Source of the DNA: Dictyostelium discoideum
Lineage: Eukaryota
DNA: 64,000 nucleotides
Direction: 5' to 3'
Assembly (NCBI GenBank): GCA_000004695.1
Contig: CM000152.2
Coordinates: 2,752,001 to 2,816,000 of the forward strand
Shown here: positions 50,732 through 52,726 of the stretch, piece by piece
How positions within the stretch are numbered: the first letter of the stretch is position 1
How the letters are laid out: each line of letters starts with the position of its first letter
Translations under genes and position numbers: made by a program
The notes under the pieces: model-generated
Told to the model about the DNA's origin: nothing
The model's database searches: none
The model's input: the letters and a program-made list of their open reading frames with translations, nothing else

Positions 50732-52726
50732 TCAAATAATTTTATTATACCTTATTTGATAATTTTCTATTATATCTCTTAATTCATATAACTTTAAAAT
50801 TAATTTTTCACGAATTTCTTTTGGATAATCTATTGTATCATCTAAATATGGATTGCAACCATTAATTAAAAAATCTAATTCATTATATTTATTTAAAGGT
50901 AAAGGTTTAAAATTTCCATTACCTTTATTAATTACCACTGGTTCCTTTTGATATGCAATTAAAAGAAATTCAACCATATCATACATTAATTTAAAAACTG
51001 ATTCAATTTTAAATTTATTCTAAAATTAATGATTATAATTTATAAAAATTATTAGAAATAATTTTATTTATTTTTAATTATTTTTTATTTATTTTTACTT
51101 ACTTGATTATGATTATTTTCAAATTTTTGAGTAACTTTTTCAACAGCTAAAATTAAATGATATGCTTTTAATAAATAAATAAAAGAATGATCATTTATTT
51201 TTTCAATTATATCATTTTTAAATAATTTAATAAATAAAATTGAAGCGGTTTGTTCTTGAGTTAAATTGAAACTATTATCATTATTTAAAAAGATATCATA
51301 ATCTGATTCAATCCAATTTCTAATTCCATTTTTTTCATGAGTTAAACTAACTATTTTACCATCATTTGAAATTAATTTTGGAAATAGGTCAACTAAAATT
51401 TCAACACCTTCAATATTCATTTTATATTCAATACTTCTTGTAATAATTTTATTAGTAACTCTAAATTTTTTCATATAATTATTCCTATTTGTTATCATAA
51501 TATTTAAATTTTTTAAAAATGCTTGAAATTGTGACGGATCAGTTTTCTCTGGTGTTAAAATCTCTCTTGGTATAATTAAATCAACATCAAGATCAATGGT
51601 TTCTTTTAAGCCGGTTTTACTACCAAATGAACCTCTAGGTATTAAAATACAACTTTTTAAAAATAAACCAATCGATGCTTCTAAAACGTGTAAACAATGT
51701 TTATAAAATCCATAATCTGCTTGAATTAACCTAAAAAACATGTATAAAAGTCTATCATTTTTACAATATGTTTCTAATTGATTAAAACTTGGTTTTAAAA
51801 CTTCTTTAATTTCATTATTTTTCAATATTGGAAATAAATTTTTATCTTCTTTTAAACTCAATAAATAAAAACATAAATTATCACATAAATAAATTGAAAT
51901 TTGTAATTTTAATTCAAAATTTTGAATTAATGAATTACTATTAAATTTATCAAATTCTTTACTATTTAATGGTATCCAATAATTTGGAAATGAAATACTA
52001 CAAATTACCCATTTACCATTTTTAATTTTTCCTATGAATGGTTCATAACCTCTTATTGGAATATCATTTTTTAAAAATATATAAATATTTTCAATTTTAT
52101 CTTGATAATTTAAATTAAATTGAATTGTACGATCTTTAAAATCAAAATCAAAATTTTCACTTTTTAAACACTTTTTTAAAAAAAAGGAAATATTAGTTAT
52201 ATTTATTTATTTTTTTTTTTTTTATATTTTATTTTATTTTATTTTATTTTAAAATTCTAATAATTACATTTTTAAAATCATTTTCAATAATTTTATTTTT
52301 AAAAAAATAATGAATATATAAATTTTTTAAAAATAAATCAATTTCTTCAGTTTGATCTGACGATGATGATAATGTAAATGATAAATTTGGAGAACTTGAT
52401 AAATTTGGAGATGATGATAATGAAGATGAAAATGGAGAATTTCTATAATGTGAAAAAGATGATTGGTGAAAATTTGGTGATAATAAATTATTAATTTTAT
52501 TTAATGGTTCAAAATTTTGTGAAAATAAATTTGGGGTTGTTTCACTTATTAAAAAATTTAATGTTGGTTTTGGTATTGGTATGGGTATTGATGATATTGA
52601 CGACATTGGTGATATCGGTGATTGTGTTTGAGGTAATGAAATTGATTGTTTATTTATAAAAACTTCAAATTTTTTTTTTCCTTCATCATTAAATGTATTA
52701 AAAAAATTATTATTCTTATATTCCAT
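50732..52726 (-). CDS. OAS/cGAS/Mab21-like nucleotidyltransferase-fold protein with an S-rich N-terminal exon; 3 exons, ~607 aa
   Basis: Minus-strand exons are 52726..52268, 52170..51094 and 51019..50732. All junctions are phase 0. The donors are AAT|gtaatt and CAA|gtaagt, and the acceptors are ttttttaaaaaag|TGT and attttag|AAT. The core motif is IPRGSFGSKTGLKETIDLDVDLIIP (hG[GS]-x9-13-DhD). A third acidic site about 60 aa downstream reads IEGVEILVDLFP, which compares with OAS VEFDVLPAF. The helical segment IYLLKAYHLILAVEK compares with OAS LIRLVKHWY. The track's 51085..51861 'MSLKED' start is a TTG inside the second exon. Confidence 0.5.

Follow-up and report, generated by a model that had tools for sequence, protein, structure and literature searches.

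The 64,000-nucleotide stretch of Dictyostelium discoideum DNA analysed here (the window; positions 2,752,001 to 2,816,000 of contig CM000152.2, assembly GCA_000004695.1) carries at 50732..52726, on the minus strand, a gene whose product ends in a predicted nucleotidyltransferase (NTase) with a fold like that of enzymes making nucleotide signals. Three open segments on the minus strand of this strongly AT-rich interval (~16% GC) splice into an uninterrupted coding sequence of 1815 nt, 604 codons followed by a stop, and a 604-residue product is annotated at the matching place in assembly GCA_054883475.1 (chromosome CM142509.1); the two colinear orthologues described below (P0001 and P0002) agree with this span. 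Exon 1 (52268..52726, residues 1-153; all features of the gene are on the minus strand) opens with the ATG at 52726, and its start, MEY.NNFFNTF, is kept in both orthologues. Exon 2 (51103..52170) covers residues 154-509, and exon 3 (50732..51019) residues 510-604 and the TGA stop. Both introns are in phase 0; intron 1 (52171..52267, 97 nt, GTAATT..AAAAAG) contains in-frame stops and intron 2 (51020..51102, 83 nt) runs from GTAAGT to TTTTAG. An earlier reading of this DNA, made without database searches (the sequence-only reading), had proposed three exons with exactly the same coding limits, from the ATG at 52726 to the last base of the TGA at 50732, and had placed intron 1 correctly at 52267-52171, GT..AG. 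Its start of intron 2, at 51093, has no GT and lies 9 nt away from the true one: the only GT donors nearby are at 51102 and 51098, and because 51102 is the only one preserving the frame, the product has 604 residues and not the 607 first given. A 258-residue protein from read-assembled contigs (P0055) matches window positions 51085-51861 with a single residue difference (NNNNQ vs NNHNQ) and corresponds to an unspliced open reading frame that crosses the intron-2 donor and ends in ...QVSKNK; it follows that its contigs derive from a near-identical strain and represent genomic or unspliced sequence.

Two full-length orthologues were found in the protein database, D. dimigraforme ACTA71_006880 (P0001, 600 aa, 83% identity to the window protein) and D. 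firmibasis RB653_005578 (P0002, 584 aa, 80% identity). After their gene structures were rebuilt from genomic DNA, each proved to contain a pair of phase-0 introns placed as in the window, the first between DFKN and C and the second between Q or E (Q in the window) and NKFKIE; insertions and deletions between the orthologues occur in a Ser/Pro/Asn-rich stretch. The word-indexed homologue search, crowded by low-complexity candidates, returned only these two proteins, and the D. discoideum AX4 entry was not among the matches of three word-indexed protein searches expected to reach 75%-identical proteins, a search that also missed a D. purpureum fragment. The ratio of nonsynonymous to synonymous substitution rates (dN/dS, Nei-Gojobori, dS ~0.5) was 0.05-0.07 for residues 271-450, the catalytic lobe, compared with 0.20-0.33 in residues 451-604 (C-terminal lobe), 0.19-0.33 in residues 154-270 and 0.31-0.60 in exon 1. 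This is a genuine gene under constraint, and the constraint is strongest in the proposed catalytic lobe. In AT-rich Dictyostelium DNA, which yields many low-complexity open reading frames, and for a protein that matches no curated family, one might suspect a wrongly spliced gene model or a chance open reading frame in which the G-S...D-x-D pattern arose by accident; yet the syntenic orthologues, the conserved introns, the strong purifying selection, the 50 homologous cluster representatives found by HMMER and the confident fold prediction already contradict such an origin, to which we attach next to no probability.

Those homologues came from an exhaustive search of 1.84 billion cluster representatives with an orthologue profile (cut-off E <= 1e-3), in which only 50 proteins matched, all of them on profile positions ~250-530. 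The named members are the chytrids Geranomyces variabilis, Rhizophlyctis rosea and Thoreauomyces humboldtii, the fungus Mycena metata and D. purpureum XP_003288150 (P0003), a 216-aa fragment with the UniRef name 'Polymerase nucleotidyl transferase domain-containing protein'; the remainder are metagenome or read-assembly proteins. P0003, the only homologue from a group-4 dictyostelid in older databases, ends just past the strand with the third catalytic Asp and has no helical lobe, which means either that the gene model is incomplete or that this copy is decaying.

Conservation was counted in a 53-sequence alignment, in which identity to the query was ~25%. The catalytic lobe and its N-terminal helices (residues 271-450) are encoded at 51280..51819. 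Within it, the beta1, G-S loop and beta2 segment PRGSFGSKTGLKETIDLDVDLI (residues 331-352, 51574..51639) holds G333, S334, D346, D348 and D350; the Gly and the Ser are each present in 49/49 family sequences, and the three Asp of the DxDxD in 51/51, 51/51 and 50/50. The strand ITRSIEY (51424..51444) contains a family-conserved T-R-S (T 36/47, R 43/47, S 44/47), whose Arg (R398) falls on that of 'PR.LSF' when OAS is aligned. The strand IEGVEILVDLFP (residues 406-417, 51379..51414), which falls within strand 398-409 of the orthologue model, carries the third catalytic Asp, D414, and is followed by K418 (D 44/48, F 46/49, K 47/48); it aligns to VEFDVLPAF of OAS1 and VDIVP of CdnC. Further downstream, the C-terminal helical lobe (residues 451-604, 50735..51279 including intron 2) includes the helix TASILFIKLFKND (residues 461-473, 51211..51249), which represents the family motif AAILLhKxWK with K468 (K 41/44, W 38/43), although the usual Trp of KxWK is replaced by Phe in the Dictyostelium proteins; this helix aligns to OAS2 ILLIKHWHQ and CdnC LAKYWAR, but also to Cid1 LLVKHWAKRK. 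A further helix, LLKAYHLILAVEK (51136..51174), has the family motif K-[GS]-Y-H-h-x-L-A-h-E (K 35/36, H 33/36) and aligns to CdnC KSFMIEL. The sequence-only reading had picked out PRGSFGSKTGLKETIDLDVDLI as a Pol-beta-type signature, IEGVEILVDLFP as the site of a third acidic residue and a helix similar to 'LIRLVKHWY' downstream, and all three are found, the last as TASILFIKLFKND.

Given such conservation, the G-S loop, the Asp residues and the KxW motif are not due to chance, and the conserved, selected NTase core has every residue that two-metal nucleotidyl transfer requires. Inactive relatives of the NTase fold, such as MiD51 and NF45, typically lack these catalytic residues. A catalytically inactive scaffold or adaptor comparable to MAB21L1, MiD49/51 or NF45/NF90, which would bind nucleotide or nucleic acid without performing chemistry, is for this gene quite improbable: the Phe in place of the family Trp of KxWK would fit it, but the G-S, all three DxDxD aspartates and the later Asp vary little or not at all despite ~25% identity within the family, and the low dN/dS of the catalytic lobe speaks against it as well.

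The structure was modelled for the orthologue P0001, and the window exons were added to its alignment as further rows; identity between P0001 and the window protein is 89% in the core and 95% in the NTase lobe. From 5 close sequences alone, AlphaFold gave a mean predicted local distance difference test (pLDDT) score of 33, and with the 53-sequence alignment P0001 residues 265-600 reached pLDDT >90 (261 residues >= 90), the N-terminus staying below 50-60. The predicted elements begin with helices, beta1, the GS turn and beta2, on which DxDxD lies; a long helix comes next, then three strands with the later Asp on the final one, a hairpin and four long helices. This order is that of a Pol-beta NTase lobe with a helical lobe after it; the model helices of the latter (446-465, 477-499, 513-530 and 572-599) have pLDDT mostly >90. 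This fold model, together with the intact catalytic residues, bears out the NTase core and C-terminal helical domain anticipated from the sequence.

When the P0001 model was compared with the PDB by Foldseek, the top 39 matches were all CdnC, CdnE, CdnD or cGAS. Structural scores against the same model were highest for CdnG (15.7), CdnD02 (15.7), CdnB (15.6) and CdnD (15.5), followed by OAS1 and CdnC (both 15.3), a further CdnB (15.0), two cGLRs and DncV (all 14.9), a further CdnG (14.8), cGAS (14.0) and CdnE (13.7). The first chain from outside this group was NF45 (13.6) and the best terminal uridylyltransferase (TUTase) scored 13.2. The predicted two-lobed structure thus has nucleotidyltransferases of the cGAS/DncV type (CD-NTases) as its nearest structural neighbours, and the terminal nucleotidyltransferases (TENTs) scored below 13 chains of CD-NTase type.

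Sequence comparisons led to the same enzymes less directly. Against PDB sequences, the 53-sequence profile matched OAS2 (1.1e-4) and E. coli CdnC (2.2e-3), then EfCdnE (0.17), a STING-associated CdnE (0.35) and Cid1 (1.1). D346 and D348 align to CdnC D72 and D74, active-site residues whose mutation does away with both cAAA synthesis and phage immunity (10.1101/694695). The two marks of a CD-NTase core are present, a G[GS] loop as G333-S334 and an acidic triad of the form [DE]h[DE]h ... h[DE]h as D346/D348 with D414, and the GS-x11-DxD spacing is identical in the family, OAS1, OAS2, CdnC and EfCdnE; Cid1 has 10 residues at this place, and a gap is needed to align it. Among the 16 PADLOC models matched by any member, 13 were 'oligonucleotide cyclase' models of CBASS, the bacterial defence system, the best match being that of P0038, a protein with all five family motifs (1.3e-7, model positions 46-202 of 285), and NCBIfam CBASS_cyclase_a matched 6 members (best 1.6e-5). 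P0038 on its own gave no PDB sequence match, and among Pfam models SMODS reached only 0.041, in a distant member, and NTP_transf_2 (PF01909) 0.0022, in one member.

Several results weigh against placing the gene with these enzymes. The structural model is that of the orthologue P0001 and not of the window protein itself. The window protein had no Pfam match at E <= 10, no PADLOC or NCBIfam match at permissive thresholds and no PDB sequence match, and its orthologues likewise matched no cyclase model. A 23-sequence profile (A4) matched OAS2 best among PDB sequences (4.4e-3), with Cid1 (0.03) and CdnC (0.035) about level and CdnE at 0.089. That Cid1 score and the 'LLVKHW' helix shared with Cid1 would suit a non-canonical RNA 3'-end nucleotidyltransferase, that is, a TENT such as a poly(A) or poly(U) polymerase or a CCA-like enzyme, which would add nucleotides to RNA without a template and release no free nucleotide signal. 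Five members also weakly matched the NCBIfam archaeal CCA-adding enzyme (best 1.2e-5), and hhalign comparisons with single sequences identical to 4ig8_A (OAS1) and 4ep7_A (Cid1) were equally weak (23% and 30% probability, respectively). Single members gave weak, sub-threshold Pfam matches to TUTase (0.0015, 0.038) and MTPAP-like (0.033, 0.27) models over the GS/DxD motif. The Cid1 alignments, however, cover only that motif (41 columns with hhalign) and need a one-residue gap, whereas the OAS1 alignment extends over 100 columns through the strand of the third Asp, which the OAS2 and CdnC alignments likewise reach. In addition, no member matched the PAP-associated domain (PF03828), and the strongest match of a true family member to any curated model is the CBASS cyclase match at 1.3e-7.

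Because the Cid1 scores, the CCA match and the lack of cyclase matches in the Dictyostelium proteins weaken the direct sequence evidence, the placement in the CD-NTase/OAS branch rests mainly on structure and on transitive sequence links. On balance we regard this branch as the probable one, and the TENT branch as unlikely. We likewise think it fairly probable that the gene is functional and that its C-terminal 335 residues make up a Pol-beta-type NTase of the cGAS/DncV/OAS kind with two lobes.

Within this class the gene could not be assigned to a described eukaryotic group. OAS1_C (PF10421) was matched neither by the window protein at E <= 10 nor by any of the 53 members at E <= 0.01, Mab-21 (PF03281) was matched by neither the window protein nor the members, and a regular expression for the zinc-thumb of vertebrate cGAS (H-x5-CC-x6-C) found none in the window protein. 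The eSMODS, the eukaryotic SMODS-type CD-NTases, are defined by top Pfam matches to SMODS (PF18144) and NTP_transf_2 (Culbertson and Levin 2023, PMC10732462), and the window protein, with no SMODS match, lies outside this definition. The sequence-only reading had assigned the gene to the OAS/cGAS/Mab21 type; a CD-NTase/OAS/cGAS-type fold with intact catalytic residues holds up, whereas membership in OAS or cGLR/Mab21 proper does not follow from the results, the corresponding Pfam models having no match. That reading had also named placement with non-catalytic Mab21-like or TUTase-like proteins as one result that would overturn it, and neither the structure nor the profile searches put the protein there.

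The bacterial CD-NTases of CBASS (CdnC, CdnD, CdnB, CdnG, CdnE and DncV) share with the family the x11 spacing and the h-D-h-h-P strand of the third Asp, and it is family members, not the window protein, that match their PADLOC and NCBIfam models. In contrast to them, the window gene is eukaryotic, contains introns and is not in an operon with an effector, and its protein has the extra invariant Asp of DxDxD, the TRS, DLFPK and KGYH motifs and a 270-aa N-terminal extension. The OAS proteins (OAS1/2/3, OASL) include the best PDB match of both family profiles and resemble the family by motif in GS..GT.L+g..D.D, in VEFDVLPAF (family VEILVDLFP) and in LIRLVKHWY (family AILLVKHWK), but the window family matches neither OAS1_C nor any other OAS model. 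With cGAS and the cGLRs of the Mab21 superfamily, identity in structural alignments is ~10-12%, and the window family has neither a Mab-21 domain nor a zinc-thumb. The TENTs (Cid1/TUT4/7, GLD-2, Trf4, PAP) differ in the x10 spacing, as seen in Cid1, and in their PAP-associated domain, for which the family has no match. A fourth invariant acidic residue, D350, together with the T-R-S, D-L-F-P-K, K-x-W-K and K-G-Y-H motifs, is specific to these proteins and distinguishes them from OAS, cGLR and eSMODS.

The nearest relatives of the family make cyclic or 2'-5'-linked oligonucleotides. By analogy of fold and conserved residues, the G333-S334 loop with D346, D348 and D414 would hold two Mg2+ or Mn2+ ions and a donor nucleoside triphosphate, the hydroxyl of an acceptor nucleotide would attack the donor alpha-phosphate, and nucleoside triphosphates would be joined without a template; D350 may take part in metal or acceptor binding. 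The product would be a short linear or cyclic oligonucleotide acting as a diffusible signal.

The sequence-only reading had also described a Ser-rich first exon and a large lineage-specific N-terminal region, and both descriptions stand. Residues 28-125 (52352..52645) form a Ser/Pro/Asn-rich low-complexity stretch, in which 29 of the 98 residues are Ser and 13 are Pro, predicted to be disordered from its composition and from a pLDDT of 20-35 in the orthologue model. Residues 126-270 (51820..52351, including intron 1) form a Dictyostelium-specific region without Pfam match, with weakly predicted helices and beta strands (pLDDT ~30-59). Most other family members begin 40-190 residues ahead of the RGS motif, and the first 270 residues show no similarity to their N-termini. 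By analogy with the regulatory regions appended to cGAS and the cGLRs, these Dictyostelium-only 270 residues, in which a Ser-rich disordered linker is joined to a region of weak structure, probably serve to regulate, localise or ligand-gate the enzyme.

Some longer members of the family differ in architecture. P0046 (831 aa) has two complete NTase cores in tandem, with RGS..DLDxD at 92 and 495, TRS at 194 and 590 and KWWK at 281 and 677, which resembles the domain duplication of OAS2 and OAS3. P0048 (933 aa) and P0032 (622 aa) have long C-terminal extensions beyond the NTase core; Pfam detected no accessory domains in the longer members, and a 'DCGGAGHCFF' motif of Cys/His type near the end of P0048 might represent a protease-like module. 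Scanning the DNA of 185,579 bacterial and archaeal genomes (596 Gb) for the signature RGS-x11-D[L/F]D-h-D-hhh-P gave a single chance match, antisense to hisS, and no viral relative was found in IMG/VR. Among the viral structures of BFVD, the only one resembling the model at E <1e-3 was that of an uncharacterised 389-aa protein from Hyperionvirus sp. (A0A3G5A6S9; E 4.5e-6, TM 0.47), a possible sign of NTase-fold relatives among viruses that infect amoebae.

As for the surroundings of the gene, the two orthologue loci share the order small kinase, NTase gene, peroxiredoxin and then DJ-1/PfpI; in D. dimigraforme a DUF4419 gene and a mitochondrial carrier lie between the last two, neither of which is annotated at the D. 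firmibasis locus. Downstream in the window (44272-50000), the peroxiredoxin (Redoxin/AhpC-TSA) and DJ-1/PfpI (44272-44973) genes are common to all three species, and DUF4419 (47462-48655) and the mitochondrial carrier (45799-46764) are common to the window and D. dimigraforme. An identical copy of the DUF4419 protein was found only in assembly GCA_054883475.1 and a few read-assembled contigs. The small kinase gene (Pkinase/RIO1/Kdo-type) is divergent and lies ~500 bp upstream of the NTase gene, both sharing a short AT-rich intergenic region; its product has 249-252 aa in the orthologous loci (L004 4611-5506; L005 4593-5459), and a plus-strand open reading frame of the window at 53237..53413 (within 52727-53413), ending in '...LISQGAEAV', resembles its first exon. 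Directly after the stop of the NTase gene, a homopolymer of ~90 nt (50640-50730, T in the minus-strand reading) gives spurious poly-Lys open reading frames on the plus strand and is typical of Dictyostelium intergenic DNA. No paralogue of the NTase gene was found within the window, and this eukaryotic gene neighbourhood offered no clue to a role in defence, the antibacterial or antiviral signalling for which the sequence-only reading had named the gene a candidate.

The fold and chemistry proposed here are already known; no model of the family exists in Pfam, NCBIfam or PADLOC, and in the library searched we found no paper that describes it or links Dictyostelium to a CD-NTase. A systematic survey of eukaryotic CD-NTases scored five dictyostelid genomes (EP00021-EP00025) without cGLR, OAS or eSMODS and lists them without STING (PMC10732462, file S1), and this absence of STING counts against the explanation favoured here. 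A bolder proposal, possible but in our view doubtful, is that the gene represents a fourth eukaryotic CD-NTase-like superfamily beside cGLR, OAS and eSMODS, recognisable by RGS-x11-DxDxD with TRS, DLFPK, KxWK and KGYH and scattered over dictyostelids, fungi (chytrids and others) and uncultured protists, which would make a new nucleotide second messenger whose receptor would be neither STING nor RNase L, the Dictyostelium-specific N-terminal region serving as a sensor or regulatory module.

The functional statements all derive from fold and conservation, which limits their practical value. The gene belongs to a rare eukaryotic family, divergent and cGAS/OAS-like, and encodes a predicted enzyme whose modelled fold and intact active site are closest to those of the cGAS, OAS and bacterial CD-NTase makers of nucleotide alarm signals. 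If the family does make nucleotide signals, it would extend the history of cGAS/OAS-type signalling by a branch so far overlooked, and D. firmibasis, D. purpureum and their relatives would provide a culturable lineage of phagocytic amoebae in which to study an orphan synthase.

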